A stretch of DNA of 64,000 nucleotides from Dysgonomonas sp. (lineage in GTDB: Bacteria; Bacteroidota; Bacteroidia; Bacteroidales; Dysgonomonadaceae). Made by a program: the position numbers and the translations under genes. Location of the stretch: positions 272 through 64,271 of the forward strand of contig JAWDXK010000021.1 of NCBI GenBank assembly GCA_032477155.1, in the 5' to 3' direction. Under the pieces are notes generated by a model. The model was not told where the DNA came from and searched no databases. It saw only the letters and a list, made by a program, of their open reading frames with translations. Positions 6,229 to 34,600 of this stretch are shown here, one piece after another. The stretch's first letter is position 1. Each line of letters begins with the position of its first letter.

Positions 6229-6271
6229 TGCTTGATAATTTTAATGGTCGCTACGGCGACACCGATTATTA

Positions 6272-13731: not shown

Positions 13732-13885
13732 TGCTTGATTTTTTAAGGCGGCAGGGGGTGGGATTATTCCCCCTTACCGCCGGGATTTTTGTTACTTTTT
13801 TACTTCTCTGATTTTTTTAGTGGTTGGTAGCGCGTAGCTATCCGTAATCTCTTTCTTTCATCTGTTTTACTTTTACGTTCGACAA

Positions 13886-14620
13886 TCAGGCGAAACCGCG
13901 TACATTAAAATCGGTCGGGGCTTTTACCGCTCCGTCGGGTAAAGTTTCCGTCCGTCGGTAGAAGGCGGAAAAGTAATCGTCCATAAGCGAGGACACTACT
14001 TTCTTTTTCGGCTCGTTATTAGCAAGCTGTTCAAAGATTTCTGTCTTGCGAATCTCGACCAACACCCGCCCGGCTTCTTCGCGCTGTGGGGTGGTTGCAC
14101 TTTCGGCAGTTTCCACCGTCCGCACCATTCCCGCCAGTTCTTCAAAGCCGATGCCCTGCGCCATACTTCCCCCGGCTCCGTCCTCCGCCGCCTCGCTTTC
14201 CCAGGTATCTAAATCCCCGTCCTCGTCAGTATCTAATTCCCCCTCTGGCTCGTTTTCGATAACTAAATCTATCTCGCCTGAATTATCTTCCGACTGGCCG
14301 GGAAAAGCATCCGTTCCGGTTTGGTTTTGGAGGACTTCGCCCGGAGTATCCTGTATGACGGCTTGCCCGTTTTCAGTTGCAAATATAGAGGCATTTTCTA
14401 TCCCTTTTTCGTTGATTTCCAAAGTGGTAGCTTGTGGCTTCGACTGGCGTAGGGTAAATTTGCTTTTCCCTATTATATCCTCTTTCGGGGTAGCCCGGAA
14501 AGGGTTAAAACCTTTCTTTCGGGCTGCATTTTTCTTGCGCTTTTCGCCCCGCTCCCAAAGCATATAAATCGCCACGACAAGGGCGTAAAGCATAATCGCA
14601 TAAATGAAATATCTTCCCAT
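13886..14620 (-). CDS. TraD-like (DUF4122-type) membrane-anchored protein
   Basis: N-terminal TM, IIGKSKF, acidic middle, AQGIGFEEL, FNVRGF end; lies between traB and traE. Confidence 0.7.
   Translation of the reverse strand: MGRYFIYAIMLYALVVAIYMLWERGEKRKKNAARKKGFNPFRATPKEDIIGKSKFTLRQSKPQATTLEINEKGIENASIFATENGQAVIQDTPGEVLQNQTGTDAFPGQSEDNSGEIDLVIENEPEGELDTDEDGDLDTWESEAAEDGAGGSMAQGIGFEELAGMVRTVETAESATTPQREEAGRVLVEIRKTEIFEQLANNEPKKKVVSSLMDDYFSAFYRRTETLPDGAVKAPTDFNVRGFA
14380..14450 (-). promoter_or_regulatory. Putative internal promoter inside traD-like CDS (perfect -7 plus activator-like motif)
   Basis: Minus-strand TATATTTG at 14387-14380. The 27-nt motif at 14424-14450 is 26/27 identical to 16191-16217. 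Confidence 0.65.
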
Positions 14621-16145: not shown

Positions 16146-16217
16146 CAAATGAAAACCTATTTTTTCATTCCGACACCATGTTTTCGGGTGGTGGTAGCTT
16201 GTGGCTTCGAGTGGCGT
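16146..16217 (-). promoter_or_regulatory. Putative tra promoter with upstream GTGG(C/T) 10-bp-period motif
   Basis: Imperfect -7 TTCATTTG (16153-16146); motif gtggtagcttgtggcttcgagtggcgt at 16191-16217. Confidence 0.6.
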
Positions 16218-16563: not shown

Positions 16564-17004
16564 ATGAATCAAAAGAATGTACCCCGCGCACGGGGTAAAG
16601 GGGGCAGACCCCCGAAAGACAATCCGGCGACGCACCGCCTGACGGTAAACCTGACAGACACCCAGCACGCCGACTTTCTTACCATGTACGAACAGTCCGG
16701 CGTCGCTTCGCTGTCCGGTTTTATTGCCGCCCGCATCTTCGGCGGCGAGTTCCGGGTAATCCAAACCGACGCCTCGGCGGTCGATTTTGTAATGAAGCTA
16801 TCCGCTTTTTACGGGCAAATTCGCTCCGTTGGAGTGAATTATAACCAGGTCGTAAAGCAGTTGCATACGACTTTCGGGGAGAAAAAAGCGCTTTCGATGC
16901 TCTATAAACTGGAGCAACAGACGATAGAAATAGCGCAGATCGGGCGCGAAGTGCTGACACTTTGCGAAGAATTTAAGGGCAAATTCTTACCTGAACAGCC
17001 GTAA
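16564..17004 (+). CDS. mobA: MobA relaxosome accessory (ribbon-helix-helix) protein
   Basis: GGRPPK, FIAARIF and IRSVGVNYNQVVK motifs. Confidence 0.9.
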   Translation: MNQKNVPRARGKGGRPPKDNPATHRLTVNLTDTQHADFLTMYEQSGVASLSGFIAARIFGGEFRVIQTDASAVDFVMKLSAFYGQIRSVGVNYNQVVKQLHTTFGEKKALSMLYKLEQQTIEIAQIGREVLTLCEEFKGKFLPEQP

Positions 17005-17007
17005 AAA

Positions 17008-18261
17008 ATGGTAGCGGATATTCATAAAGGGAATAACCTTTACGGCGCACTGGCCTATAACCAGGACAAGATCGACCGGGGCAAAGGGCAAATACTGGAA
17101 ACAGACCGGGTATTTGTTCCCTATGACGGACAGTTTCGCGTGTCGGATTGTGTGCAGGATTTCGAGCGGGCTATGCCTTCGCAAATAACAACAGGCAAGC
17201 CCGTAATCCATATTTCACTCAATCCACACCCGGACGATAAACTGACCGACGCGCAGCTTGCGGATATTTCGCGGGAGTACCTCGAAAAAATGGGCTTCGG
17301 TGGACAGCCTTACATGATATTTAAGCATGAAGATATAGACCGCCAGCACGTTCACATTATTTCTACCCGTGTCCGGGGCGACGGCTCCATTATCAGCGAC
17401 AGCAAGGATTACGAACGGAGCCGGAAGATTACCGACGCCCTGGAACAGAAATACGGCCTGCATCCCAAAGGCGAAAGCCAAAAAGAAGCATGGCAGCTTT
17501 CCCCGGTAGACGCTTCGGCGGGTAATCTTAAAAAGCAGGTAGCGAATGTCATTAAGCCGCTTTCCGATATGTACTGCTTCCAGTCCATTACCGAATACCG
17601 CGCCCTGCTCTCCTTATATAATATAAGTGTGGAGAAAGTCGAAGGGAGTAACCAGGGAAACAAGTACGAAGGGCTGGTTTACTCGGCACTCGGAGCCGAC
17701 GGGCAGCGTGTCGGCAAACCCCTTAAATCTTCCCTGTTCGGCAAGAGTGAAGGGGTCGCCCGCCTGGAGGAAAAAATGAACAGTTCCGGGGAGGCGATAA
17801 AGTCCGGCAAGCTGGCCGAAGGAACAAAGGCTGCCGTTTCCGACGCCCTTAAAGCATCACGCACCGAAAGCCAGTTGCGCGACGCTTTACGAAAGAAAGG
17901 TATCGACGTGGTATTACGCCGCAACGATGCCGGGCGTATCTATGGGGCAACCTTTATAGACCACAACAGCCGCACGGTGGTAAACGGCTCCCGTCTGGGT
18001 AAAGAGTTTTCGGCGGGCGTCTTTAATCAGCGGTTTGCAGATAATTCGCCCCGCGAGGATCTGCAAAAGCCCGCACAGAATATCCCGAACGTACCCGCTT
18101 CCGAAGGGAAAAGCAAGCAGCCCCAGACCGGCATTACCGATGTCGGTAAAGCGGCTGGCAGTCTGCTTTCAGTTCTTACACCCGAAACCGAAGGGCAAAA
18201 TAATCAACCTGCACCCCGTCGTCGCAAGAAGAAAAAACGCAAGTACGGGCGGCAGATGTAG
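17008..18261 (+). CDS. mobB: MobB relaxase
   Basis: LYGALAYN, HISLNPHPDD, FKHEDIDRQHVHI (HUH), GRIYGATFIDH, NGSRLGKEFSA. Confidence 0.95.
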   Translation: MVADIHKGNNLYGALAYNQDKIDRGKGQILETDRVFVPYDGQFRVSDCVQDFERAMPSQITTGKPVIHISLNPHPDDKLTDAQLADISREYLEKMGFGGQPYMIFKHEDIDRQHVHIISTRVRGDGSIISDSKDYERSRKITDALEQKYGLHPKGESQKEAWQLSPVDASAGNLKKQVANVIKPLSDMYCFQSITEYRALLSLYNISVEKVEGSNQGNKYEGLVYSALGADGQRVGKPLKSSLFGKSEGVARLEEKMNSSGEAIKSGKLAEGTKAAVSDALKASRTESQLRDALRKKGIDVVLRRNDAGRIYGATFIDHNSRTVVNGSRLGKEFSAGVFNQRFADNSPREDLQKPAQNIPNVPASEGKSKQPQTGITDVGKAAGSLLSVLTPETEGQNNQPAPRRRKKKKRKYGRQM

Positions 18262-18296
18262 TCAATAAAATTTCAAATCATTAAAAAATTAAGATT

Positions 18297-20306
18297 ATGC
18301 AAAATGAAGATGATCTGCGCGGATTGGCTAAAGTCATGGACTTTATGCGTGCGCTATCCATATTGTTCGTAGTGATACACCTGTATTGGTTTTGCTACGG
18401 GGCAATACATGACCTGGGCTTTAATATCGGCGTAGTCGATAAAATCTTGATGAATTTTAACCGTACCGCCGGACTGTTTACCTCTATCCTGTGGACGAAA
18501 CTTTTTGCGGTGGTTTTTCTCGCGCTTTCCTGCCTCGGTACGCGAGGCGTCAAAGACGAAAAAATTACCTGGGCGAAAATCATTGTCTGCCTGACCGCAG
18601 GCTTTATCCTGTTTTTCTTTAATTGGTGGCTGCTTGCCCTGCCGTTCCCGGCGGAGGCAAATGCAGGGCTTTACGTCCTTACCATGACCGCAGGTTATAT
18701 ACTCCTTCTTATGGGCGGCGTATGGCTTTCCCGATTACTGAAAAATAATATGTTTGACGACGTTTTCAATACCGAAAACGAATCTTTCCAACAGGAAACG
18801 CGGCTACTGGCAAACGACTATTCCGTAAATTTACCTACCCGGTTTTACTATAAAAAGAAATGGAACGAGGGCTGGGTAAACGTGGTAAACCCGTTCAGGG
18901 CGTCGATTGTGTTAGGTACTCCCGGTTCCGGGAAATCCTATGCCATTGTGAACGGCTATATAAAACAGCAAATCGAGAAGGGTTTTAGTATGTATATCTA
19001 TGACTTCAAATTTCCCGACCTCTCGACTATTGCATATAACCACCTGCTGAATAACCGCGAAGGCTACGAAATTACGCCGACGTTCTATGTGATTAACTTC
19101 GACGACCCTTCCCGGTCGCACCGCTGTAATCCTATTAATCCCTCTTTCATGGAGGATATAAGCGACGCTTACGAAAGCAGCTATACGATTATGCTTAACT
19201 TAAACCGTACCTGGGTAAGCAAGCAAGGCGATTTTTTTGTGGAATCTCCGATTATCCTTTTCGCCGCGATTATATGGTACTTGCGGATATACAAGGGTGG
19301 GCAGTATTGCACCTTCCCTCACGCGATAGAGTTTTTGAATAAGCCCTACGAGAAAATTTTTCCTATCCTGACAAGCTACCCGGAACTGGAAAATTACCTT
19401 TCTCCTTTCATGGATGCCTGGCTGGGAGGCGCGGCGGATCAGTTGCAGGGGCAAATAGCGTCGGCAAAGATACCGCTTTCGCGTATGATTTCCCCGGCGC
19501 TTTACTGGGTCATGTCAGCGGACGAGTTTACGCTGGATATTAATAACCCGGCAGAGCCGAAAATTTTAGTCGTAGGTAATAATCCCGACCGTCAGAGCAT
19601 ATACGGGGCGGCGCTGGGGCTGTATAATTCCCGTATAACGAAGCTCATTAATAAGAAGGGACAGCTTAAAAGCAGCGTCATAATCGACGAGTTACCCACG
19701 ATTTACTTTCGCGGGCTTGACAATCTTATAGCCACCGCCCGGAGCAACAAGGTTGCCGTCCTTTTGGGCTTTCAGGACTTTAGCCAGTTAAAGCGGGATT
19801 ACGGCGACAAGGAGGCCGCCGTAGTTATGAACACGGTAGGCAATATCTTTTCCGGGCAGGTCGTAGGCGACACGGCAAAAACTTTGTCTGACCGCTTCGG
19901 GAAAGTCCTTCAAAAGCGGCAGTCCATGACGATAAACCGCAATGATAAATCCACCTCGATAAGTACACAAATGGATAGCTTGATACCCGCGTCGAAAATA
20001 TCAAATCTTACGCAGGGTATGTTTGTCGGAGCGGTGGCGGATAACTTTTCGGAGAGGATAGAGCAAAAGATTTTCCATGCCGAGATAGTGGTGGATAGCC
20101 AGCGAGTAGCCGCCGAAGAAAAGGCGTATAAGAAAATACCCGTCATTGCGGACTTTACCGACGAGCAGGGCGTGGATAGGATGAAGGAGCAGATACAGGA
20201 GAATTACGACCGTATCAAAGCCGAAGCCCGGCAGATTGTCGAGGACGAGATACAGCGTATAAAGGACGATCCCGACCTTTGCCACCTGTTACCGAAAGAA
20301 GAATAA
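18297..20306 (+). CDS. mobC: MobC type IV coupling protein (YWFCY domain)
   Basis: YWFCY motif, Walker A GTPGSGKS, IIDELPT, ATARSNKVAV. Confidence 0.96.
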   Translation: MQNEDDLRGLAKVMDFMRALSILFVVIHLYWFCYGAIHDLGFNIGVVDKILMNFNRTAGLFTSILWTKLFAVVFLALSCLGTRGVKDEKITWAKIIVCLTAGFILFFFNWWLLALPFPAEANAGLYVLTMTAGYILLLMGGVWLSRLLKNNMFDDVFNTENESFQQETRLLANDYSVNLPTRFYYKKKWNEGWVNVVNPFRASIVLGTPGSGKSYAIVNGYIKQQIEKGFSMYIYDFKFPDLSTIAYNHLLNNREGYEITPTFYVINFDDPSRSHRCNPINPSFMEDISDAYESSYTIMLNLNRTWVSKQGDFFVESPIILFAAIIWYLRIYKGGQYCTFPHAIEFLNKPYEKIFPILTSYPELENYLSPFMDAWLGGAADQLQGQIASAKIPLSRMISPALYWVMSADEFTLDINNPAEPKILVVGNNPDRQSIYGAALGLYNSRITKLINKKGQLKSSVIIDELPTIYFRGLDNLIATARSNKVAVLLGFQDFSQLKRDYGDKEAAVVMNTVGNIFSGQVVGDTAKTLSDRFGKVLQKRQSMTINRNDKSTSISTQMDSLIPASKISNLTQGMFVGAVADNFSERIEQKIFHAEIVVDSQRVAAEEKAYKKIPVIADFTDEQGVDRMKEQIQENYDRIKAEARQIVEDEIQRIKDDPDLCHLLPKEE

Positions 20307-21155: not shown

Positions 21156-21273
21156 ATCGAAAATTTTATTGCTTCAAAAATAATAATTTATAGGGAGCTA
21201 TAATTAATATAGCTATTCTGCTTCCAAAGGTACGAAATGTTGTTGATAATTTCCTTTGAAATCAGATATTTCA

Positions 21274-21345
21274 ACGCCACTCCCGGACACAAGCTGCCGC
21301 CGTCTTAAAACCTTGCAATCAGTCCATTACTTCGGTTTACCTTCG
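21274..21345 (+). promoter_or_regulatory. Putative promoter of DUF3945-topoisomerase operon with third copy of activator-like motif
   Basis: acgccactcccggacacaagctgccgc (21274-21300) is 21/27 to the reverse complement of the tra motif. -7-like TACCTTCG ends at 21345, at the same spacing. Confidence 0.6.
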
Positions 21346-21387
21346 TTCTGCATTAATAGTAATGCAGAATTAAAAACCATTTTCATT

Positions 21388-22938
21388 ATGGCAAAACAAA
21401 GCAAAAAAGACGAGCCTTTAGTGTTACTATCTATCGGCGCGGACGGTAATTTGAAAGTCGTTTCTGGGATGAATCCGAACGGAACGCTTAATACCGTCAA
21501 TCCCACAAAAGAGAACTCGGACAAATTCTTTGAAATTAATTCCAACGGCAACCCGCTGGAAAATTTCATGCAGAAGTTTTCCGGGCAGTATGAAACCCCG
21601 TCGCATATCGGACTGTATGCGGTGGCAGTAAGTGCGGTCGAAAAAATTTCCGCTTTCCTCGACAAAATCATTAAGGTTAATCCTGATGATAAGGTACTCG
21701 ACCCTTATAAGGTTAAGCCCGAAGGCGAGGCGCAGGCACAGGGAAAGTACCAACCGCTCGACCTTAATAAAGTCGATTGGAAGGACGCCGAAAAGCTGGG
21801 TATCTCCGGCGACGATCTGCGCGACGCGCTTAAAGCAATGGCCTACGGCCATAAATCCCCCGGCCTGGTTGATATTAAGGCGAATATCGACGGACAGGAT
21901 ATTACCGTCAAAGCCCGACTGTCCCTGGAGCAACAGCCCGACGGTAGTATCAAAATCCAAACCCACCCCAAACAGGAGCAGCCCGATTTCGATAAGCCGT
22001 TTATGGGCGTGAAGTTTACCGACGAGGATATAAAGCAATTCCAACAGACGGGTAACGGTGGCCGGGTATTCGACCTGGAGCCTGTACCCGGCGGCGAAAA
22101 AGTGCCGTCGCTCGTTTCGCTCGACAAAATGACTAACCGCTTCGAGGCTATGGCAATCGCCGATATTAATATCCCGCAGACGTTGAAGAACGCCCAGCTT
22201 TCCGAAGAACAGCAAGGCAAGTTAAAAGCAGGCGAGGGGGTGCTGGTCGAGGGCATGGATAAGAAGGTAAAGCCCGGCGAAGAGCCTTCCAAAATCGACC
22301 GCATTATCCAGTACAACGCCGCTAACCGCAATTTCGATTTCCGGTTTACCCCGGAACAGCGGGAGCAGCACCGCCAGGATCGGCAGGCAAAGCAGGAACA
22401 GGCCGGAGAAGATAAGCCGCTTAAAGCCCGTAAGGTCGGCGATATTTGGGTACGCCCCATTCAGGGCGGCGTGGAACTTTCCCGCGACCAATTCAAAAAG
22501 CTATGCGAGGGTACGCCTGTTTGGGTGGAAGGTATGCAGAAGCCCCAACCCAAACAGCAGGAAGGAGCGCAGCAGGTCGAAGCCACCGACAAGAAAGGGC
22601 AGAAATACAATGCCTGGGTATGGCCTGACCCGGAGAAAGGCCACGTCCGCCATACCTCAAAACATCCTGACCAGGTGCGGGCGATTGAAGCAAAGCAAGC
22701 CGCGAAAGAGGGTAAGAACGTCAAACCCGCCGACGGCCATAAGACACAGGTAGCCGTGAATAATGACGGTAAAACCAACGAATCGACGAAGCACGCCCAG
22801 GGCAAGGGCGAAGCGTTGAAGTCCGGGCAGACTAATCCCACTGCCAAACAGGACGAGAAGAAGAAGGAGAGCCAGCAGCGCCGACAGTCCCCGGCAGCTC
22901 CGAAGAAAGGCAGAAGTAAAGGCGTAGGGGGCTTGTAA
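21388..22938 (+). CDS. DUF3945/DUF4099-type CTn protein
   Basis: NPLENFMQKF, VDWKDAEKLGI, ARLSL, QTGNGGRV, SLDKMTN, HKTQVAVNNDGKTNE. Likely start is MAKQ at 21388. Confidence 0.85.
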   Translation: MAKQSKKDEPLVLLSIGADGNLKVVSGMNPNGTLNTVNPTKENSDKFFEINSNGNPLENFMQKFSGQYETPSHIGLYAVAVSAVEKISAFLDKIIKVNPDDKVLDPYKVKPEGEAQAQGKYQPLDLNKVDWKDAEKLGISGDDLRDALKAMAYGHKSPGLVDIKANIDGQDITVKARLSLEQQPDGSIKIQTHPKQEQPDFDKPFMGVKFTDEDIKQFQQTGNGGRVFDLEPVPGGEKVPSLVSLDKMTNRFEAMAIADINIPQTLKNAQLSEEQQGKLKAGEGVLVEGMDKKVKPGEEPSKIDRIIQYNAANRNFDFRFTPEQREQHRQDRQAKQEQAGEDKPLKARKVGDIWVRPIQGGVELSRDQFKKLCEGTPVWVEGMQKPQPKQQEGAQQVEATDKKGQKYNAWVWPDPEKGHVRHTSKHPDQVRAIEAKQAAKEGKNVKPADGHKTQVAVNNDGKTNESTKHAQGKGEALKSGQTNPTAKQDEKKKESQQRRQSPAAPKKGRSKGVGGL

Positions 22939-22970
22939 TCCGATTTTTCAAACCACTAAAAAAATCAAAG

Positions 22971-25082
22971 ATGAAAGTTATAATAGCAGAAAAGCCCAGC
23001 GTTGCGCGAGATATTGCCAGCGTTTTAGGCGTAACCAATAAGCAAGACGGATTTATTGAAGGTAACGGCTATGCCGTTACGTGGGCGTTCGGCCACCTGG
23101 TCGGGCTTGCCATGCCCGAAGCCTACGGCTTTACGGGCTTCCAACGTGAAAACCTGCCGATACTCCCGAAGGAGTTTACCCTCATACCCCGCCAGATAAG
23201 GGAAGGCAAAGAGTATAAAGCAGACCCCGGCGCACTCAAACAGCTAAAGGTTATTAAAGACCTGTTCAGCCGCGCCGATGAAATTATAGTAGCTACCGAT
23301 GCCGGACGCGAAGGGGAGTTAATATTTCGCTACATATACAATTATGCAGGATGCCGCACCCCGTTCCGCCGTCTGTGGATAAACTCACTTACCGACCGTG
23401 CTATCCGCGACGGCTTCCAAAGCCTTCGCCCAGGAAGTGATTACGATAACCTTTATTACTCCGCCAAAGCCCGCAGTCAGGCGGATTGGATAGTCGGCAT
23501 AAATGCCTCGCAAGCGCTTTCCATTACGGCAGGGTACGGCGTCTGGTCCCTCGGAAGGGTACAGACCCCAACCCTCGCTATGATCTGCTCGCGCTACCTG
23601 GAGAATAAGGATTTTAAGCCGCAGACTTATTTTCGCTTGAAGGTGCATACAGCGAAGGACGCGACGGCTTTTGCAGTCCTTTCCGCTGATAAATTTGTTA
23701 CCCGGACTATTGCCGAAGAAGTTGCGGCACAGGTCAGAGCCGACGGAGCGGTAACGGTTACAGGCGTGGAACGTAAGGAAGTCCACCAGGAACCGCCCCT
23801 GTTATACGACCTTACCGCCTTGCAGAAGGACGCCAACAAAAGGCACAGCTTTTCGGCGGACAAGACACTGACAATAGCCCAGGCGTTGTATGAAAAAAAG
23901 ATGATTTCATACCCGCGTACAGGTTCTCGTTATATTTCCGCCGACGTACTGGAGGAAATACCGCACCTGGTCGCTACGCTCCGGGCGCACCCGAAATTCG
24001 GGGCGTATATCGACGCCCGGTTTGATACTTCGCTTAATACCCGTCCGGTGGACGATACGAAAGTAACCGACCACCACGCGCTGATTATTACGGAAGATCC
24101 CGCTGTCGGGTTATCCGCAGATGAACAGCTTATTTACGACATGGTTGCCGGGCGTATGCTTGAAGCCTTCGGAGAGCGTTGCACCAAAGAGAACACCGCC
24201 GTAACGTTTGACGCTGGCGGCGCACACTTTGTCGCAAAGGGCAGTATAATGTTACATCCCGGCTGGCGTAATGTTTGGGGAGCCAACCAGGAAGAAACAG
24301 CGGAAGAAGATTTAACCGTACTGCCCGACTTGACGGAAGGCGATAAGCTGGCCGTCCGTGATACGGAGGTGCAGGAGAAGCAGACCAAATCGAAACCCCT
24401 GCACACGGAAGCCTCCCTGCTTTCGGCAATGGAATCGGCAGGCAAAGAGGTGGAGAACGAAGAAGAACGCGAAGCCATGAAGGACGCAGGGATAGGAACA
24501 CCCGCGACAAGGGCGGCGATTATCGAAACCCTGTTTTCCCGTGAGTATATCGTGCGCGAGAAAAAAGCACTTGTACCCACGAATAAAGGGCTTACCGTTT
24601 ACCTGGCTGTCCGGGAGAAGAAGATAGCCGACGTTGCCATGACCGGCGGGTGGGAACACGCCCTTTCTAAAATCGGTACGGGCGAAATGGATGCGGCCAC
24701 CTTCCACCGTTCGATAGAGGTTTACACCTCGCAGATCACATCCGAATTACTGGATATGCCTTTCGAGCGGCAGGATAACCGCCAGTCCTGCCCTTGCCCC
24801 AAATGCAACAGCGGGAACGTAATTATTTACGCAAAGGTAGCCAAGTGTAATAATGAAGCCTGCGGGCTAACTGTATGGCGCACCATTGCGAAAAAGGAGT
24901 TATCCGATACGCAGATTACGTCGCTGCTAATGAATGGCACGACCGGGATTATTAAGGGATTTATAAGCAGTAAGACGGGCAGTACGTTCGAGGCCGCTGT
25001 GAAATTCGATACCGATTATAAAACCGTTTTCGAGTTCGAGAAGAAGAAAGGCGGTAAAGGCAAGAAGGGTAAATCCAGGTAA
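22971..25082 (+). CDS. topB: Type IA DNA topoisomerase III (CTnDOT Exc-like)
   Basis: IAEKPSVA, ATDAGREGELI, GRVQTPT, catalytic SYPRT, DHHA, GIGTPATRA and C-terminal Zn ribbon. Confidence 0.95.
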   Translation: MKVIIAEKPSVARDIASVLGVTNKQDGFIEGNGYAVTWAFGHLVGLAMPEAYGFTGFQRENLPILPKEFTLIPRQIREGKEYKADPGALKQLKVIKDLFSRADEIIVATDAGREGELIFRYIYNYAGCRTPFRRLWINSLTDRAIRDGFQSLRPGSDYDNLYYSAKARSQADWIVGINASQALSITAGYGVWSLGRVQTPTLAMICSRYLENKDFKPQTYFRLKVHTAKDATAFAVLSADKFVTRTIAEEVAAQVRADGAVTVTGVERKEVHQEPPLLYDLTALQKDANKRHSFSADKTLTIAQALYEKKMISYPRTGSRYISADVLEEIPHLVATLRAHPKFGAYIDARFDTSLNTRPVDDTKVTDHHALIITEDPAVGLSADEQLIYDMVAGRMLEAFGERCTKENTAVTFDAGGAHFVAKGSIMLHPGWRNVWGANQEETAEEDLTVLPDLTEGDKLAVRDTEVQEKQTKSKPLHTEASLLSAMESAGKEVENEEEREAMKDAGIGTPATRAAIIETLFSREYIVREKKALVPTNKGLTVYLAVREKKIADVAMTGGWEHALSKIGTGEMDAATFHRSIEVYTSQITSELLDMPFERQDNRQSCPCPKCNSGNVIIYAKVAKCNNEACGLTVWRTIAKKELSDTQITSLLMNGTTGIIKGFISSKTGSTFEAAVKFDTDYKTVFEFEKKKGGKGKKGKSR

Positions 25083-25101
25083 ATCACTATCTTTGCCACT
25101 G

Positions 25102-25200
25102 AAAAAGTCTTTGAGGTTATTGCAGATAGGGATGTTTGCTTTTAACTTCTTTGATTTTTTTAGTGGTGGCGTCCGGGGCTATGCTCCGGACGCTTTTTTT
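25102..25200 (+). ncRNA. Putative RteR-like small RNA (~100 nt)
   Basis: Perfect -7 TATCTTTG (25088-25095), no ORF, terminator gcgtccggggc-tat-gctccggacgc + T7 (25169-25200). Same position as CTnDOT rteR (after exc). Antisense matches to ICE mRNAs. Confidence 0.75.
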
Positions 25201-25262
25201 ATAAAGGCACGCCCCGCCTTATCTCTCGACAAAACGGGACGCTTGTAAAGAACAAAAAGAAT

Positions 25263-25589
25263 TTACTGCCTGAAATCTTCGTCTGTTTCCTCTCCCGGCT
25301 CCCCTTTTTCAAAATGCGACTGTATAAACGATTCTACGTCGCTTTCCCTGTAATAGGTCTTATGATAGATAGTTTGGTAGGGCAGTTCGCCCGAAGAACG
25401 GTAACGCTGTAAAGTACGCTTGCTGACATGGAGCAATTCGCATACGTCCTGATTATCCAACAATCTTTCGCCATCCAAAAAATTATACCTTCCCGACATC
25501 TGTTCCATATTATTATCCAGGCTGTCAAAACGCCCCATAAACCGCTCGAACCATTCCTGCATCCAGTTCATTAAATCATTATCTCCCAT
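25263..25589 (-). CDS. HTH_17 excisionase-like protein
   Basis: LDGERLLDNQDVCELLHVSKRTLQRYRSSGELPY, HKTYYRESDV. Confidence 0.9.
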   Translation of the reverse strand: MGDNDLMNWMQEWFERFMGRFDSLDNNMEQMSGRYNFLDGERLLDNQDVCELLHVSKRTLQRYRSSGELPYQTIYHKTYYRESDVESFIQSHFEKGEPGEETDEDFRQ

Positions 25590-25601
25590 ATCGCAAGCCT
25601 C

Positions 25602-25979
25602 CTATTTATTCACTTTGTTTATACTACCTGCTGTGCGACGCTGCTGGTATTCCTGATGTGCCCGGAGCAAATCGGCCTCCTGCCTGTACTTACTTACGAC
25701 TACCCGCCCGACGATAAGGCGCTGTATCTCCCGGAGCGTATAGCGTGTCCTGCCGCCCCGGATAGAATAGGTTATTTCGCCATTGGAGCGCAAGCGTTGG
25801 AGTGTCCGCAGGCTTATCTCCAAAATTTCGGCGGCTTCATCGTTGCCTATCCATATCTCCGACGGATCTGGAGGCGGCACAGCCTCTTTTTCCGATTGCG
25901 CTTTGATATAGTTATATACCCGGTCGATTTTTCGCACCAATACTTTATAGGCTTCCGAATCAATAGTTATTATTTTCAT
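25602..25979 (-). CDS. HTH_17 excisionase-like protein
   Basis: WIGNDEAAEILEISLRTLQRLRSNGEITYS..GGRTRY. Confidence 0.88.
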   Translation of the reverse strand: MKIITIDSEAYKVLVRKIDRVYNYIKAQSEKEAVPPPDPSEIWIGNDEAAEILEISLRTLQRLRSNGEITYSIRGGRTRYTLREIQRLIVGRVVVSKYRQEADLLRAHQEYQQRRTAGSINKVNK

Positions 25980-26938: not shown

Positions 26939-27070
26939 GCGAACGTTATGTTATATATCTATGCAGAATAAATCTGCGTTTTCATTCTATTTCCGTTTTG
27001 CAAAGATAGTGAATGTCCTTGAAACAATCCTTGTTTTTAATAGCTTTGTGCTAAAAGCCTCCTTACTAAT

Positions 27071-27467: not shown

Positions 27468-28319
27468 CTACTCTGAATCGTCCTTTTCCATTCTCCTGAT
27501 AAGTGCCTCTATCAGTTTGTTGAGGAAAGGTGTTCGGTCTTTTTTGCGACTTTTGATAGCAACATAAGTCCTGTAGTAATCTCCCAAGTCAATATCGAAA
27601 TTGACCTCTATGAAGTTCATTATCTCCTTCACATCTACATTTCCGTTGTTTATGGCTCCGCTGTCCCTCATGGAGTAACCTAATTCGATAGCATCGGATT
27701 TTGAGCCAGTCCATTTCAAATTGTTGTTCGGTAATAACTCCCGGCTCTTTTTGATAATGACTTGTTTCTCTATGCTATGCTTTTTCTTGTTCAGGTATAT
27801 CCTTAACATTTCGTTGCAGATAATCTTCGCCACCTTATAATCATACCCGGTTGAGAACAGCGGATCGAGTATGTATTTCGCACTATCTACACAAAGTTGA
27901 GGACTTGATTTTCCCCTTATAAAGTATTGCTCGTCTAAATAGGTCGAGTTGGCTCTGTAATATTGGTGGAAATCCAAATTGCGCTCAAAGAAATACGTCA
28001 GGCTCATTAGTTCCTTATCGTAATACTCGCTTTGGGTTTCATTACTGCCAATAGGACGTTTTAACTCAATGTTATGTATCTTATTGAAATACAACAATAA
28101 GCCCAACACTTCGGGTTTCATTTCTTTGAAAAATGCGATTTCTTCCTCCGGGGTTATTGACTTCAAAACGAGAAAATAGTCCCGAAGTTCAGATAAACAA
28201 TCTTCCAGATATTTAATCATTCTGACAGAATCCCCTATGGGAATGTCGCAACCTTCCAAATCAATGCTTTGCAACTCTGTTTGGATTTTCGCTGATAGAC
28301 GTGTGTAAAAATCTCTCAT
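27468..28319 (-). CDS. rteC: RteC-family conjugation/excision regulator
   Basis: EEIAFFKEMKP, FHQYYRANSTYLDEQYFIRG, FSTGYDYKVAKII, LKWTGSKSDAIEL, IKSRKKDRTPFL. Confidence 0.93.
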   Translation of the reverse strand: MRDFYTRLSAKIQTELQSIDLEGCDIPIGDSVRMIKYLEDCLSELRDYFLVLKSITPEEEIAFFKEMKPEVLGLLLYFNKIHNIELKRPIGSNETQSEYYDKELMSLTYFFERNLDFHQYYRANSTYLDEQYFIRGKSSPQLCVDSAKYILDPLFSTGYDYKVAKIICNEMLRIYLNKKKHSIEKQVIIKKSRELLPNNNLKWTGSKSDAIELGYSMRDSGAINNGNVDVKEIMNFIEVNFDIDLGDYYRTYVAIKSRKKDRTPFLNKLIEALIRRMEKDDSE

Positions 28320-28326
28320 AATCTTC

Positions 28327-28998
28327 TTATTTTATTATTTCTCCATCTACTAAGTGAATGATGCGATCCGATTGTCTGGCAAAATCGTCGTCATGGGTAA
28401 CGGTTAAAATCGTATATCCCTTTTCGGCTGTCAGTTCCCGGAACAGGTCTAAGACAATACGGGTGTTGTTCGTATCTAAATTTCCAGTCGGTTCGTCGCC
28501 GATAATAATTGCAGGCTCATTAATCAATGCCCTTGCAATGGCGACACGCTGTTGCTGTCCGCCCGAAAGAAGCGATGCCCGTTTTTGTGCCTGTTCCCGC
28601 ACATCCAACAACCCAAGCAAGTCAATAGCTTTGCTTTCGATTTCCTCTTTGGAATACTTACCTTGTTTCAACGCCGGAAGCATTACATTTTGAAGCACAG
28701 TAAAATCAGGTAGCAGGTAATGAAACTGAAAAATGAATCCGATATTACTGTTCCTGAAACCAGACAGCCATTTGTTACCCTTGCCTTTTATCTTGTTCCC
28801 GTTTATTTTTATACTCCCCTCAAAATCGCTATCCATTGTCGAGAGCAGGTACAATAGGGTTGATTTTCCGCTTCCCGACTTACCTGTTATCGAAGTCAGT
28901 TTCCCCTTTTCGATGCTGAAATTCAGATTTTTCAGCACCCAAAAATCCGTAGGGGTGTAAAAATGCTTGTTCAGATTTTCCACTTTCAGTATTTCCAT
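28327..28998 (-). CDS. ABC transporter ATP-binding protein (LolD/MacB-like)
   Basis: GKSGSGKST, GFIFQFHYLL, LSGGQQQRVAIARAL, DEPTGNLD. Confidence 0.95.
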   Translation of the reverse strand: MEILKVENLNKHFYTPTDFWVLKNLNFSIEKGKLTSITGKSGSGKSTLLYLLSTMDSDFEGSIKINGNKIKGKGNKWLSGFRNSNIGFIFQFHYLLPDFTVLQNVMLPALKQGKYSKEEIESKAIDLLGLLDVREQAQKRASLLSGGQQQRVAIARALINEPAIIIGDEPTGNLDTNNTRIVLDLFRELTAEKGYTILTVTHDDDFARQSDRIIHLVDGEIIK

Positions 28999-29002
28999 AT
29001 TC

Positions 29003-30265
29003 CTATCCTCTTATGATGTAAACAGGGTCTATGCGGGCAGCCTTTCGCGCCGGGATGTAGCCCGACAGGAAAGCAGTCAGAATCCCGAACGACAAGCCCG
29101 ATATATAAAATGCTTTATTAAAGCTGATCGGCAGATGATTGATTGAAGAAAACAGTTCGCTTTCATAAGGGATAAGAGATACCCCGTATGAAATAAGGAA
29201 TCCGAATAACAGTCCCAGCAACGACCCGACGATGCCGATTACAAAGGACTGGATAAGGATAATTCCCCGTACATCATCGTTGGAGAATCCCATAGCTTTT
29301 AGTATGGCTATCTCTTTCATTTTCTCGTATATCATCATATTGAGTATGTTGTATATACCGAATCCGGCAACCAGCAACAGGCAGATAGCGACACAATAGA
29401 CGACCATGTTTTGCATGGCTTCGTTCTCAAAAGCAAGGGCGTTGTCTTTCATCCAGTCGGACGTACTGCACCCGTATTTTGCCCTGTATTCATCCGATAC
29501 GGCAAAAGCCATATCCTTATCGTGCAGTTTGATTTTAATATCGGTTATATACGAAAAGGGAACGGATAGTATCTTCTGAACGGTCGCCAGACTTGCGTAG
29601 CATTGTTCTATATCAATTTCGGGAATACCTGTTTTGAAAATTCCGATAACCGTCATGGTCAGGTATTCTCCCTTTTGTGTGGTAACGGTAATTTTATCGC
29701 CCGAACGGACATTGATTTTCTTTGCCAATCCCGAAGCCATGACCAAACTGTTAGGCGTAGTATTCAGTTCGGTAAAGCTGCCTTCCCTTAATTTGGTAGC
29801 CAGATTGAGCAGGACGTTTTCATCATCGTAGTTAATCCCGGTAATCTGCCCGTTGAAGAGGGACAGCCCGACTTCGTAAAACACCTGCGTTTTAACCGAC
29901 CCTGAAACCGCTGAAACTCGCTCATCCTGCCGTATTTCCTGTATAACCTGCAATCCGTCTTTTATATTCGGCAATACCGCTTTGGGCTTGACGTGGTGCG
30001 TATAATTTTGTGTGTTCGGACTGATTTTATCCAAGATTGTATGTTGGGCGATTTCCGGCTCGTTATACAGGCGCACATGAGGTGTTTGTTCCAACGTAAT
30101 TTCCTGCACATATCCGTTCAGTCCTTTCACGTATGCGAGCAGGAATATAAATACCGTAACCCCGAAAACAACGCCTGCCGTTGCTATTATGGATTGCTTC
30201 TGCCTTGTTCTCATTTGGGAAAAGGCTACGGAAGCGGCTAACCGTATATCTTTAATTACGCTCAT
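29003..30265 (-). CDS. ABC transporter permease (LolC/E, MacB/FtsX family)
   Basis: 1 TM + large periplasmic loop + 3 TM; KEIAILKAMGF, PARKAARIDPV. Confidence 0.93.
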   Translation of the reverse strand: MSVIKDIRLAASVAFSQMRTRQKQSIIATAGVVFGVTVFIFLLAYVKGLNGYVQEITLEQTPHVRLYNEPEIAQHTILDKISPNTQNYTHHVKPKAVLPNIKDGLQVIQEIRQDERVSAVSGSVKTQVFYEVGLSLFNGQITGINYDDENVLLNLATKLREGSFTELNTTPNSLVMASGLAKKINVRSGDKITVTTQKGEYLTMTVIGIFKTGIPEIDIEQCYASLATVQKILSVPFSYITDIKIKLHDKDMAFAVSDEYRAKYGCSTSDWMKDNALAFENEAMQNMVVYCVAICLLLVAGFGIYNILNMMIYEKMKEIAILKAMGFSNDDVRGIILIQSFVIGIVGSLLGLLFGFLISYGVSLIPYESELFSSINHLPISFNKAFYISGLSFGILTAFLSGYIPARKAARIDPVYIIRG

Positions 30266-31350
30266 TGCCGGGCAGGTTTTAGAATCATATCCCCGGTAAC
30301 AACGCCCGATTTAACTTCAACCAAATCGTTTATCCTGATTCCTGTTTTCACCGGAATCATTTTATCATCGGCTTGTAGTACGCTATCCCCTTTGAACAGG
30401 TAATCGAAAGGAATCATCGTCGCTTTGATGTTCTCACGTATGATAATACAGGCTTCTACGGAAGATTGGGGATAGAAGAAATCGGAACCGGATATAACGG
30501 CATCTACTTTGAAATACCTTGATTCTTTCCGCATCACCGGGTCAATCTTTGAAATGCAGGCTTCAAACTGCCTGTCGGGATAGGTATTCGATTCAAAATA
30601 TACTTTTTGACCGATAGTGATTTTATTTATATCCCGTTCGTCAATGGATAATTCCAGTTTGAAAGCGTTATCCACTCCGACCATTAATACAGGGGATTCG
30701 CTTTCCGCTATTTCTCCCTGCTCTTTCAGAATGGAATAAACTTTGCCCGATATATTGCTTCTTATCGCATTGTCGTTGTATTGCCGGGAAATATCTGCCA
30801 GTTGCAGTTCGCTTGCGAGTAGTTTGTCATTCAGCCTGCTTTTTGTAGCTGTATATTGCTCCTGTAAAGTGCTCACTTCTGCCAAACTCCTTTCTGCCGC
30901 AAGCTGTCTATCTTCCGCTTCCTTTGGCGACACGGCTTTATCGACGGCTAATTTCTGGTAGCGTTCCGCATTCGTCTTATCCTGCCTGTATTGCTGTTCG
31001 GCTATATCTATTTTAGTCCGAATCTCGTTCAGTATGGCGGAATTTCCGCTTGCGTTCTCTCTGGCAATAGCAACCTGACCTGCCGCCAACCGGATTTTTT
31101 CGGTATCGTCCGTACTCCCCATGATAACCAATAGGTCGCCTGCCGACACCCTGTCGCCCTCTTTTACCAATATTTGCAGGATAGGTGCTGTCTTAGGCGA
31201 TTTAAGGAAATAGTATTGTATCGGATAGACCTCTCCCGAAGCATATACAGCTTCGTTTATGGTATGTTCGACTACTGTATATGGTTCTCCATTCTGTTTG
31301 CAGGCGCAAAAGAGGATTGCAAGTATAAAGATTGGAATACTGTTTTTCAT
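30262..31350 (-). CDS. Efflux periplasmic adaptor (MFP) lipoprotein
   Basis: Lipobox FCAC, VKEGDRVSAGD lipoyl half, helical hairpin, IRSNISGKV. Likely start is MKNS at 31350. Confidence 0.9.
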   Translation of the reverse strand: MKNSIPIFILAILFCACKQNGEPYTVVEHTINEAVYASGEVYPIQYYFLKSPKTAPILQILVKEGDRVSAGDLLVIMGSTDDTEKIRLAAGQVAIARENASGNSAILNEIRTKIDIAEQQYRQDKTNAERYQKLAVDKAVSPKEAEDRQLAAERSLAEVSTLQEQYTATKSRLNDKLLASELQLADISRQYNDNAIRSNISGKVYSILKEQGEIAESESPVLMVGVDNAFKLELSIDERDINKITIGQKVYFESNTYPDRQFEACISKIDPVMRKESRYFKVDAVISGSDFFYPQSSVEACIIIRENIKATMIPFDYLFKGDSVLQADDKMIPVKTGIRINDLVEVKSGVVTGDMILKPARQ

Positions 31351-31354
31351 TCTC

Positions 31355-32650
31355 TTATTTGCTTTGTAAATAGATGATTTCGACATAGTGTTTCAAGTAG
31401 TTAGTTATTGCCTGATTGTATTTATTCTGTTCGTCCATTAAATCCTGTTGAATCTGCTTGAGTTGTAGCATATCAATAATCCCACTCTCTATTTTCTGAA
31501 TACTCAACCGTTCGTTTTCTTCGGCAAGGCGTAATTTTTCTTCCTGTATATGGAGAGTTTCCCAGCCGCTTTGAAGATTTATAGCGTGTTGCATAAAGGC
31601 TCTACGCTGACTATTCTCATAGTGCTGAAAATCTTGTTTTGCTTGTGCAACGATTATTTTCCCCTTTTGTGATTGCCGGACATTAGACATGGAGAATAAA
31701 GGTATGCTTAACCGTACCCCGACGAACGACGAAGTATGCCACGCGGAGGATTGAGTAATATATTTGCTCTTTTCTCCGAAACCGAGTTGTCCGTAACTTC
31801 CGACAAGTTCCAGTTTGGGATAAAAAGCGGATAAGCGGGCTTTGTTATCCCTTTCTGCAATATCTATTTTCAACCGTTCGGCTTCATAGTCCGGCAAGCG
31901 GTTACTCTCAAAACAGCCTATTTCGGGGGCGGGGATCTGATTATTCTGCTGAACGGTTAAAACGGAATCCAACGGGTAGCCCATCCAAAATTTCAAATCC
32001 GCAAGACCGCTTTCTACTTTATAGCCTGCCTGCAAATAGATTTCTTCCTGATTTTTTAATAGACCTAAAGACTGGTTGAAAGAAATTTGATCCAACAGAC
32101 CTTCATTAAACATCTTTTTGACTAATTCATGCACCTGCTTTTGGTTGTCATAGCGTTGCCGGGCAGTCGCAAATTCATTGCTGTATTGTTGAACCAAATA
32201 GAACGATATAGATACATTCCTCGATAAAAGTTTTTCAACCGAAGCGTGTTCATGTCGCTTTGCCTGTTCCCGTAAAGCCGACAATTTGATTTCCGACCAT
32301 ATTTCGGGATTGATAAGGTTTAGTTTCACATCTATTCCATAGCACCCTGCATGGGTGGTTGTGGTCGGTACTGTAATGAATGTTCCGGGAGATTGCCCTA
32401 CCAACTCTCCGGGCAGGGTTTGTACAGGAACTTTCCAATAATAATCCAAATTGGCACTGGCAGATATTTCGGGAAACAGTCTGCCTTGAACGGCTTTGCG
32501 TTCCATGCTCTGTATCTCCGTCCCGTATCGGCTCGAAAGTAGTTGCTTATTGTTTTCCAGCGCATAAGACAAACATTTGTCTAAATTCCAGTCTTGCGCC
32601 ATGCAAGATAAAGCAGGGAAAAGCGTTAATATTAAAAGTGCAGCTTTCAT
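31355..32650 (-). CDS. TolC-family outer membrane efflux protein
   Basis: WNLDKCLSYALENN, FYPKLEL, VGVRLSIPLF and helical repeats; signal peptide. Confidence 0.9.
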   Translation of the reverse strand: MKAALLILTLFPALSCMAQDWNLDKCLSYALENNKQLLSSRYGTEIQSMERKAVQGRLFPEISASANLDYYWKVPVQTLPGELVGQSPGTFITVPTTTTHAGCYGIDVKLNLINPEIWSEIKLSALREQAKRHEHASVEKLLSRNVSISFYLVQQYSNEFATARQRYDNQKQVHELVKKMFNEGLLDQISFNQSLGLLKNQEEIYLQAGYKVESGLADLKFWMGYPLDSVLTVQQNNQIPAPEIGCFESNRLPDYEAERLKIDIAERDNKARLSAFYPKLELVGSYGQLGFGEKSKYITQSSAWHTSSFVGVRLSIPLFSMSNVRQSQKGKIIVAQAKQDFQHYENSQRRAFMQHAINLQSGWETLHIQEEKLRLAEENERLSIQKIESGIIDMLQLKQIQQDLMDEQNKYNQAITNYLKHYVEIIYLQSK

Positions 32651-32703
32651 TTATTTATTCTGTTATTTATACTGCAAAATAAAGGGAGGCTGACGGGAAC
32701 AGG

Positions 32704-32746
32704 AAAAGTATTTGACCATTGGTAGAAACCAACTGACAACTGGTAG
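32704..32746 (-). promoter_or_regulatory. LytTR-type direct-repeat box upstream of tolC operon
   Basis: tgaccattggtag (32713) and tgacaactggtag (32734), 21-bp period. Near-identical copy at 35622-35664. Confidence 0.75.
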
Positions 32747-32804
32747 CTAATCAATTAGGAGAATACTTTATCTTTGTACTGAAGAATTAAAGAGGATAAA
32801 AGAT

Positions 32805-33833
32805 ATGAAGCTAAGTTTCTTAAAACATTATAATTTCTACATCGGGATAATATGGATAATACTATTCATAGCCCTTTGGATGCAATTCTCATCGAGAGCC
32901 CCCATCGGGGAATCCCTTTTGTTTACTTTCTGCTTTACGGTTTGCTCTTTTGCGGTAAGTACCTTTATCAGCCGTAAAATCGTTCCGAAAGCACTTGCCA
33001 ACAAAAAACTGAACCCGTTTATATTTCAGTTTATTCTGGGTGTCCTGTTTTTGGCTTTTCTACTGGAGTTAATCGTAGAGTTGTTTTATATCCTTGAAAG
33101 CAACGGGGTCTTTAGTGTTTCTCCGTTGATTTCCGACATACACGACCCGTTCATTATCGGGATTTTGGGTATGCTTCCGACCTCTATAATGGTTATTGCA
33201 GGATTTTGCGGACTTGAACTGTTCCGCGCCCATGCCGTACAGGAAAAGGAGCGATTGGAAGACCAGTTGAACTTTCTGAAAAGTCAGGTAAACCCGCATC
33301 TTACGTTCAATGTATTGAACCATATTCATATCCTTATTTATAAAGACGTGGAACTGGCGGACGAACTTCTTTTGCGCTTTTCGGACGTTTTGCGCTATCA
33401 ACTGTATGAATGCAATAACGATGTTGTCTTGCTGGAATCCGATCTAAAGTATGTAAAGGATATTGTCGAGATTGAAAAAATGAGGTGGGGCAATGAATTG
33501 GACGTTAATGCCAAATTCGAGATTGAAGATAGTACCGCAGCTATACGTCCTTTAATGCTTATCCCTTTCATAGAGAACGCATTTAAGCACGTTTCCCGTT
33601 TGCCCGATAAGAAAGGATATGTAAAAATAGACTTCTCCCAAAAGGGTAAATCCGTTCGCCTGATTGTGGAGAACTCAAAGTCGGCGACACCACCCCGGAA
33701 AAACGAACATTCGGGTTTGGGATTAGTGAATACAAAAAAACGGTTGGAAATATCTTATCCCGAAAAGTATCAGTTGGATATTCGGGAAACAGATAATATA
33801 TACAAAATAGACCTCCAAATTACTTTAGAATAA
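32805..33833 (+). CDS. LytS-type sensor histidine kinase
   Basis: About 4 TM helices with no large periplasmic domain; LKSQVNPH, LRYQLYE, PFIENAFKH, SGLGLVN. Perfect -7 at 32769-32776. Confidence 0.93.
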   Translation: MKLSFLKHYNFYIGIIWIILFIALWMQFSSRAPIGESLLFTFCFTVCSFAVSTFISRKIVPKALANKKLNPFIFQFILGVLFLAFLLELIVELFYILESNGVFSVSPLISDIHDPFIIGILGMLPTSIMVIAGFCGLELFRAHAVQEKERLEDQLNFLKSQVNPHLTFNVLNHIHILIYKDVELADELLLRFSDVLRYQLYECNNDVVLLESDLKYVKDIVEIEKMRWGNELDVNAKFEIEDSTAAIRPLMLIPFIENAFKHVSRLPDKKGYVKIDFSQKGKSVRLIVENSKSATPPRKNEHSGLGLVNTKKRLEISYPEKYQLDIRETDNIYKIDLQITLE

Positions 33834-33838
33834 CATGT

Positions 33839-34600
33839 ATGGCAGAAATAATTTCACAACAGACCGATAGTATTCCTCTAAAATGCCTTGTGGTCGATGA
33901 TGAACCAATGGCGCGGGAGGGAATGGCTGACTTAATATCTAAAGTCGAGTTTCTGAATCTGGCGGGCACTTGTGCGTCTGCTATGGAAGCAAGGGAATTT
34001 ATAGACCGCAACCCTGTCGATCTCCTTTTCCTCGATATAAATATGCCTTACCTCTCCGGGTTGGAATTTCTCGAATCGCTTGATAATGCACCGCTAACAG
34101 TCCTGACAACGGCATATCCGCAGTACGCAATGGACGGCTATCGGTTTCAGGTAGTGGACTACCTGCTGAAACCTATCGCGTTTAAGCGTTTTTATCAGTC
34201 AGCCATAAATGCCCAGCAAACTTATCGTTTGCACGAACTGGCGAAGAAAGAGGGCAAGAGCAAGAAGCAATCCGTCTTATACGTCAAACAGGGCGATGCT
34301 TACCAACGGATTGTATGGGAGGATATTTTGTATATCGAGGGGATGCAGAATTATGTGAAAATCCACTTTCCGGGAGAAACTAAAATCATTCTCCAGACGA
34401 TTACATCATTGGAAGAAATGCTCCCCAAAGAGGAATTTTTCAGAATACACAAGTCCTACTTGGTAAACGTCAATCATATAGATTCTATCGAGGGTGGACG
34501 GATTTTCATAGGCAAAAACGAACTGCCTATTTCGCGGCATCGGAAAAATGAATTGCTCAATACGGTGGTTTTCCAAAACTTACTAAGCAAGAATAAATAA
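33839..34600 (+). CDS. LytTR-family response regulator
   Basis: VVDDEPMA, FLDINMP, DYLLKP receiver; YIEGMQNYV, FFRIHKSYLVN LytTR domain. Confidence 0.95.
   Translation: MAEIISQQTDSIPLKCLVVDDEPMAREGMADLISKVEFLNLAGTCASAMEAREFIDRNPVDLLFLDINMPYLSGLEFLESLDNAPLTVLTTAYPQYAMDGYRFQVVDYLLKPIAFKRFYQSAINAQQTYRLHELAKKEGKSKKQSVLYVKQGDAYQRIVWEDILYIEGMQNYVKIHFPGETKIILQTITSLEEMLPKEEFFRIHKSYLVNVNHIDSIEGGRIFIGKNELPISRHRKNELLNTVVFQNLLSKNK

Follow-up and report, generated by a model that had tools for sequence, protein, structure and literature searches.

The 64,000-nucleotide (nt) stretch of Dysgonomonas sp. analysed here, referred to as the window (contig JAWDXK010000021.1, positions 272 to 64,271), holds, by its gene content, a CTnDOT-like integrative conjugative element. 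This element carries topB, which encodes a topoisomerase III of 703 amino acids (aa) in the exc position (22971-25082, + strand; 543.5 bits against TIGR01056 and 619.8 bits against NF005829), and directly past topB lies a short unit in the position of RteR, the small RNA (sRNA) of CTnDOT. The initial annotation described a promoter-to-terminator unit without an open reading frame (ORF), and this description is upheld by a predicted -7 box, stable fold and terminator. The sole ORF that spans the unit is a mechanical 51-aa TTG frame (25093-25248). The box, TATCTTTG (25088-25095, + strand), is separated by 5 nt from the topB stop (25082) and fits TAnnTTTG, the Bacteroidetes -7 consensus (PMC7366714). 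It is followed by a conserved CCACTG (25096-25101, + strand), in which CC is invariant and ACT nearly invariant across 46 distinct units from related loci. The predicted RteR-family sRNA occupies 25102-25200 on the + strand and would be about 97-100 nt long. We infer a 5' end at 25101/25102 because the Rfam rteR model begins at the sixth base past the -7 box on a bona fide RteR. An intrinsic terminator with a T run closes the unit (25168-25201, + strand), and its 12-pair stem (25168-25194) contains nine G-C pairs.

The RNA 25102-25200 has a minimum free energy of -42.1 kcal/mol (z -6.6), and none of 200 shuffles was equally stable. The predicted fold consists of a 5' helix around a hairpin, a single-stranded UAGUGGU and the terminator. 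The putative seed (25145-25170, + strand) is made up of a variable flank, a U run and a conserved UAGUGG(UGG). If the RNA begins at 25102, UAGUGGU (25161-25167) has an unpaired probability of 0.77-1.0, with the U run held in the 5' helix. The bases that link the box to the predicted 5' end and the first bases of the RNA form CCACUGAAAAAGUC (25096-25109), which resembles the target and is able to base-pair along the full seed (25153-25166). Across the 46 units this helix is conserved, as RNAalifold likewise pairs CCACU with AGUGG, with some covariation (at one pair G-U 18, A-U 13, G-C 10 and U-A 4).

The topB translation start region (-19 to +1; 22952-22971, + strand) reads ACCACTAAAAAAATCAAAGA, followed by TG, where 22971 is the A of the topB ATG. 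Segment 25148-25167 in the sRNA is its exact reverse complement, as had been seen directly in the sequence, and the predicted duplex has an energy of -29.2 kcal/mol. A third copy with one mismatch lies at 13805-13824 on the - strand. Three matches at three or fewer mismatches compare with 0.01 expected, and none of 100 shuffles gave three or more. Among the 25 inverted pairs listed, 22952-22971/25148-25167 is the only one with 100% complementarity. The reported match to the traE leader also holds, at 22/23 positions over 13802-13824 (- strand), and its single difference, a G facing a U in the sRNA, still allows a wobble pair. This second site lies 69 nt ahead of the traE ATG, inside the 154 nt that separate traE from the traD-position gene, and has a predicted duplex energy of -34.3 kcal/mol. 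Over 35 nt the sRNA strand is 86% identical to the antisense of the traE leader. A G+C-rich hairpin without a U tract (13747-13783, - strand) stands between this site and the traE start.

A perfect inverted repeat that encloses an entire gene could also have a role as DNA, either as invertase repeats that flip topB or as twin protein-binding sites. This is very improbable. Inversion had been named as an alternative at the outset, and the inverted arrangement (a seed without terminator) is present in none of 74 related loci; nor do the profile matches of the window proteins include a recombinase gene adjoining the pair. The third copy lies in the tra operon, and the right arm is inside a promoter-hairpin-terminator unit with co-varying helices. 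In addition, single-base differences between the partners are often G:U-compatible, a property relevant in RNA only.

Weaker sites had been suggested at the traN, mobA and mobC starts. They were assessed by a duplex scan of 190 ORF start regions and by a net-energy scan of 98 start regions, where net energy is that of the co-fold minus the separate folds, so that self-folding is subtracted. In the duplex ranking topB is first, traN second, the traE start third, mobC 33rd and mobA 38th. By net energy the topB start (-14.3 kcal/mol) is the best of the 98, with a runner-up at -8.4, and the traE leader reaches -25.9. The site at the traN start (6229-6252, - strand; duplex -21.0, net -6.9) is a marginal candidate and no outlier, so this part of the suggestion stands weakly. 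mobA and mobC (net -4.0 and -2.0) are background and are rejected as targets in this window. The start regions of traN and traE (6219-6241 and 13722-13744) have a common 23-nt stretch, 87% identical and ending in ATCAAGCAATG, which may explain the high duplex ranks of both.

Relatives of the unit were collected by a topB protein search with 190 tblastn-positive stretches, from which 78 loci were taken (49-91% identity, mostly Bacteroidales), giving 79 sequences with the window. A unit was defined as TTTAGTGG at most 1200 nt past topB, followed by a hairpin of -15 kcal/mol or better and with TA..TTT[GA] at most 110 nt upstream. Such a unit follows topB in 74 of the 79 sequences, 63-830 nt past the stop and always on the topB strand, and the -7-type box, itself a selection criterion, is 55-76 nt upstream of the seed in all 74. 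The unit was not found in L046 (where only 146 nt past topB are available), in L072 and L073 (truncated topB matches), or in L077 and L078. The last two are from Sphingobacterium, with 49% identity, and their topB leaders likewise lack the motif. The 46 distinct units diverge widely in their central hairpin and terminator but all keep CCACU at the 5' edge and UUUUAGUGG ahead of the terminator, although the core was in the selection regular expression and its invariance is therefore partly built in. The terminator stems differ between lineages with changes on both sides (in 15, 11 and 7 sequences at three pairs). Ten loci (L004, L005, L007-L009, L011, L029, L039, L045 and L071) have a 67-nt insertion between the topB stop and the sRNA, which duplicates the start of the promoter context and leaves one degenerate and one intact box.

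The comparison with Rfam proposed at the outset did not recover the unit at the gathering score. The rteR model (RF04181) gives 24.7 bits against a gathering score of 72 (E 0.06-0.15), over a full-length match at 25113-25197, and no Rfam family reaches its gathering score anywhere in the window. BTnc201 (24.7 bits against a cut-off of 105) was rejected, since its consensus lacks the AGUGG seed, and the sub-threshold scores of RsaE, BTnc201, VrrA, RybB and leaders are driven by the terminator and the U-rich stretch. Across 151 genomes of the order, the Rfam rteR model has one match above cut-off (G135:C1, 96.3 bits). This bona fide RteR directly follows an exc-position gene whose product is 58% identical to the window TopB, and its order of TATCTTTG, CCGCUG, hairpin, UUUUAGUGG and terminator is the plan seen in the window. 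A model, R1, was built from the 46 topB-adjacent units only, with the G135 RteR excluded. R1 recognises the G135 RteR (46.3 bits, E 5e-7) as well as the window unit (88.9 bits) and three further copies in the window's genome. Because R1 recognises both the bona fide RteR and the window unit, and the two have a common layout, the window RNA is, on sequence and predicted structure, a divergent RteR homologue. By the same comparison the Rfam rteR model is too narrow and the family much broader than the model. Under strict filters R1 places the family in 4 of the 151 genomes searched.

RteR-like sRNA genes number at least five in the window's genome (G000) and belong to different lineages. The further copies are on contigs C10, C27 and C38 (L079, L081 and L082) and on C32 (L121, about 1320-1450, + strand). 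Four of the cores read UUUUAGUGGUGG and one reads AAAUUAGUGGAGG. For the AAAUUAGUGGAGG paralogue, both candidate targets (the start of the next gene and a traE leader on C19) bear the matching change.

Complementarity at the topB start is maintained through compensating changes. Among the loci, 70 have both a unit and a complete leader, giving 38 distinct seed/leader combinations, and in 31 of these the seed pairs with its own topB leader at -18.7 to -33.1 kcal/mol. Flank and leader match within lineages, as UCUUUGA/UCAAAGA in the window, UUUAACAUUGA/UCAAUGUUAAA in L021-L027 and CUAUUGA/UCCAAUAG in L054. A test free of the core compared the 14 nt before the U run with the stretch from the A run to the ATG over nine flank clusters. 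The cognate sum was -66.8 kcal/mol against -39.2 +/- 7.5 for permuted pairs, with 5 of 20000 permutations equal, and the cognate leader ranked 1, 1, 1, 3, 3, 1, 2, 1 and 3; since the loci and clusters are related, the permutation figures overstate independence. Positions +3 to +8 past the A run have two to four standard pair types each, and the A run and U run are equal in length in 20 of 27 distinct pairs. An ungapped column count mis-registers lineage B, which has a C within the U run, and gapped duplexes are better there. Of 64 scored topB sites, 63 stand 6-12 nt ahead of the ATG and one stands 86 nt ahead. The check on seed/target covariation proposed with the initial annotation thus came out in its favour, for the topB start and also for the traE leader. 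Compensating changes of this kind would be expected of genuine RNA-RNA targets and of a multi-target repressor, so the silencer proposed there is supported in part.

The traE-leader site, rather than topB, is the stronger and more conserved predicted partner. traE is present in 4 of the 79 fetched sequences, where the seed pairs with its own leader at -29.0 to -37.1 kcal/mol, 58-69 nt before the ATG. Five more elements, in which traE was located on the same contigs, give -21.9 to -32.3 kcal/mol at 55-67 nt, and the bona fide RteR of G135, carried by a CTnDOT-type element, pairs with the homologous traD-traE gap at -26.6 kcal/mol. The site therefore pairs with its own sRNA in 10/10 elements examined (-21.9 to -37.1 kcal/mol). 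A 9 x 9 matrix of sRNAs and traE leaders has a cognate mean of -29.9 against -20.3 for non-cognate pairs, with the cognate best in 7/9, and none of 20000 permutations reached this. A G+C hairpin and then the traE start come after the site, in the window as in the CTnDOT-type element. Two lineages separate the partners: the C in the U run of lineage B finds a G to pair with in the traE leader but is a mismatch at the topB leader, and lineage E has an A.C mismatch at the topB leader and none at the traE leader.

These comparisons also bear on the possibility that topB transcription runs on to the terminator of the unit, and that the resulting messenger RNA (mRNA), with both the site and its complement, folds back in cis (5'-3' pairing) and limits its own translation, or is processed to an sRNA derived from its 3' untranslated region; a separate sRNA promoter would then be minor or absent. 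The 5 nt between stop and box, the lack of a terminator-like site between the topB stop (25082) and the unit, and the common strand of sRNA and topB in 74/74 units would all fit. Fold-back in cis is nevertheless unlikely. The -7 box with CCACU is kept across 400-830 nt of intervening DNA (L022-L027, L052, L054-L062, L069 and L070), and in 7/38 combinations the unit is intact beside a topB leader without the site. The strongest and most conserved complement is the traE leader, which belongs to another operon on the opposite strand, and the CTnDOT RteR is reported to be constitutive from its own promoter and trans-acting (2013 minireview, PMC3809561).

Start regions other than topB also bear the motif. 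In 1.49 Mb of loci, CCACUA(3+) has 167 sites when the sRNAs' own antisense is excluded, and, with 40 nt as the limit, an ORF of at least 50 aa starts 3-31 nt past 132 of them, 117 at 6-11 nt. The adjoining ORFs are topB (67), a DUF1896 gene of about 150 aa just past the sRNA (36) and MobA (18), and TraE accounts for four, at distances of 70-80 nt. Median duplex energies with the own seed are -26.7 kcal/mol for topB, -23.1 for DUF1896, -23.0 for MobA and -33.6 for the traE leader. mobA starts bear the site in another lineage, unlike in the window. In the CTnDOT-type element the best start-region partner is the orf3-position DUF4099/DUF3945 gene before exc (-31.4 to -34.5 kcal/mol). The CCACUAAA sites beside orf3-like genes of the fetched loci pair weakly (-12.2 to -15.6) and were put down to chance. 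With a tra site in all elements examined and start targets that differ, the family appears to retain the tra site while its start-region target shifts among excision and mobilisation genes between lineages.

A short G+C hairpin (GGGUCUGCGACCCC-like) often directly precedes the target sites, for topB in L022-L027 and L036 and for traE in L092, L093 and L101. The orf3-position and traE sites of G135 (L086) are likewise directly preceded by one. Two sites in one element share about 35 nt of similar sequence, which looks like the repetition of a module made up of hairpin and site.

It is conceivable, but improbable, that only the tra site is functional and that the topB match is a by-product of a spread intergenic module (a small hairpin plus CCACUAAAA). 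The likeness over about 35 nt of sites that often follow a small G+C hairpin, the better match of the traE leader than of topB in several lineages, and the variation of the start-site gene by lineage (topB, DUF1896, mobA or the orf3-position gene) are what such a by-product would look like. A passive repeat, however, would decay uncompensated, and both the fixed register before the topB ATG and the flank between A run and ATG, which co-varies with the sRNA flank over nine clusters, speak against it.

The reading that we prefer, with a probability of about 70%, is that the unit at about 25101-25200 is a trans-acting RteR-family sRNA that prevents translation of topB and reduces tra expression at the traD/traE gap. 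It builds on the observed sequence features, family membership, conservation and seed/target covariation. We infer that a -7-box promoter of its own drives the sRNA, that transcription stops at the terminator (25168-25201) and that both targets are repressed. The single-stranded UAGUGG between the 5' helix and the terminator would nucleate on the target CCACUA, and the duplex would then extend into the U run and the lineage-specific flank, a toehold-then-invasion layout. At topB the duplex would cover -19 to +1, the A-rich ribosome-loading region. In Bacteroidetes, A at -3, -6 and -11 to -15 promotes translation (PMC7366714); these positions lie under the topB duplex, so occlusion of initiation is the simplest reading. 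The stronger duplex in the traD-traE gap would lower expression of traE and later genes. Since it lies 69 nt before traE, the effect must be on the transcript, and it might act by termination, cleavage or occlusion; the hairpin past the site lacks a U tract.

Several points weigh against this reading, beside the sub-threshold Rfam score, the partly built-in core invariance and the relatedness behind the permutation figures. Pairing at topB is not universal, as 7 of the 38 combinations are weak (-4.8 to -9.7 kcal/mol). The leaders of L033 and L043 lack CCACU and those of L047, L048, L049, L051 and L076 lack the site, although the start of the DUF1896 gene downstream bears it in L047, L051 and L076, and the motif is visible there in L048 and L049. 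At the exc start of the CTnDOT-type element that carries the bona fide RteR, the core matches only weakly (-13.3 kcal/mol). The topB-leader mismatches of lineages B and E, without counterpart at the traE leader, suggest that topB may be a secondary target. If the RNA began at 25096, CCACTG would complete a 14-bp helix and the seed would be wholly paired. For RteR in CTnDOT itself, the half-life of tra mRNA is unchanged and mob has been ruled out as a target (PMC3809561).

The surrounding genes agree with a CTnDOT-type element, as Bacteroidetes-type tra genes, mobABC, an exc-type topoisomerase and rteC are all present by profile matches. The tra genes occupy the - strand between about 15835 and 3591, with TraG, TraJ, TraK, TraM and TraN equivalogs above the NCBIfam cut-offs (TraG, 1637.6 bits against TIGR03783). 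traE (DUF4134; 13429-13731, - strand; 131.4 bits against Pfam PF13572) is the first gene past the tra site. mobA, mobB and mobC, with MobA/B/C above cut-off, occupy 16564-20306 on the + strand. A DUF4099/DUF3945 gene (21256-22938) lies upstream of topB across a 32-nt gap. A 27-nt direct repeat, 96% identical, is found at 14424-14450, inside the traD-position gene, and at 16191-16217, in the traA-mobA gap. That gap is the expected place of the origin of transfer.

Two HTH_17 excisionase-like genes (25263-25979, - strand; Pfam PF12728) converge on the sRNA gene and sit downstream of an rteC homologue (27468-28319, - strand; 266.6 bits against Pfam PF09357 RteC), part of a CTnDOT-type regulatory module. 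The terminator listing has no - strand terminator between 25100 and 25263. With none up to the sRNA, read-through from the HTH_17 genes would produce an RNA perfectly antisense to the sRNA. An inverted copy of the promoter context of the sRNA, TCACTATCTTTGC (25074-25096), is found at 27000-27022 (83% over 23 nt), and this copy is likely a -7 box for the - strand genes heading toward the sRNA. Probable cargo at 28327-34600 and 37995-41402 includes an ABC/HlyD/TolC-type export system, a histidine kinase with a LytTR regulator and a 1135-aa WGR-plus-ankyrin protein, and no classical resistance gene was seen among the window's probable cargo. From about 41.6 kb onward come housekeeping and sugar-use genes, and the right end of the element should therefore fall before them.

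The presence of several lineages in one genome raises the possibility, which we hold only tentatively and judge rather doubtful, that RteR-family sRNAs form an addressing system for co-resident conjugative elements. The common UAGUGG toehold would give every copy some reach, and because of the fast-evolving flank the traE leader of an element, along with one or two start regions that would change between lineages (topB, orf3-position gene, DUF1896, mobA), would be repressed best by that element's own sRNA. If so, at least five such sRNAs in the genome could let elements silence each other or leave each other alone. The sRNA might be subject to two switches: its 5' end, which imitates the target, may hide the seed, and on induction RteC-driven HTH_17 transcripts could serve as perfect antisense sponges.

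RteR, to our knowledge the first small RNA described in Bacteroidetes, is the closest known system. Like the window sRNA it lies directly past exc/topoisomerase III on the same strand, is about 90-100 nt long, and has a -7-box promoter, an intrinsic terminator, the UUUUAGUGG core and a predicted traD-traE site. Outside the core the window sRNA is too divergent for the Rfam model, and its second strong partner is the topB start, whereas that in the CTnDOT-type element is the gene before exc. The 2013 minireview assigns rteR to the 500 bp lying downstream of exc and reports that RteR leaves traA unchanged while the tra genes downstream can scarcely be detected, with the half-life unaltered (PMC3809561). 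According to the same text, the tra leader has been ruled out as the place of an RteR site, and premature termination at some point of the tra operon is proposed (PMC3809561). The published phenotype, with traA unchanged and downstream tra genes off, matches the traD-traE site, which is thus a candidate for the concrete place of the proposed termination. A 2026 review says of RteR, in its accessible passages, solely that it 'represses CTnDOT transfer' (PMC13750123). According to the initial annotation, direct pairing of RteR with exc is not known to have been described. This is true of the accessible text of six papers (PMC3809561, PMC7366714, PMC13750123, PMC5812530, PMC10994844 and PMC9299015), none of which names an RteR pairing site in that text either; the 2012 primary paper was outside this comparison. 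The name RteR was not found in the supplementary files searched for PMC7366714 (eight of nine) and PMC10994844 (11 of 20). What is new here is a divergent RteR family member with predicted pairing at the topB start and traE leader, supported by covariation. The co-varying sites are the traD-traE gap (10/10 elements) and the start of an excision-module gene (topB, or the orf3-position gene for the bona fide RteR), and they suggest that one RNA couples excision and transfer control. Several copies per genome raise the question of cross-talk among elements that move genes between gut Bacteroidales.

In the similar FinP/traJ system of F-like plasmids, a small RNA encoded by the element pairs with the start region of an mRNA for transfer control and so keeps conjugation off. 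FinP is antisense in cis, is fully complementary to its one target and works with FinO, whereas the window RNA is trans-encoded, has partial complementarity to multiple targets and has no known chaperone. FinP is named as a parallel in PMC9299015. GibS and other trans-acting sRNAs of Bacteroides are also intergenic, have their own start site and terminator, and bind translation initiation regions (PMC13750123). They are chromosomal metabolic regulators, in contrast to the window sRNA, which is element-borne, multi-copy per genome and predicted to target genes of its own element. The sgm-sRNA of Salmonella Genomic Island 1 is another mobile-island RNA that lies beside the 3' end of a gene and controls mobilisation (PMC9299015). 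It comes from a 3' untranslated region and is required for mobilisation, whereas the RteR family represses transfer, apparently from a promoter of its own.

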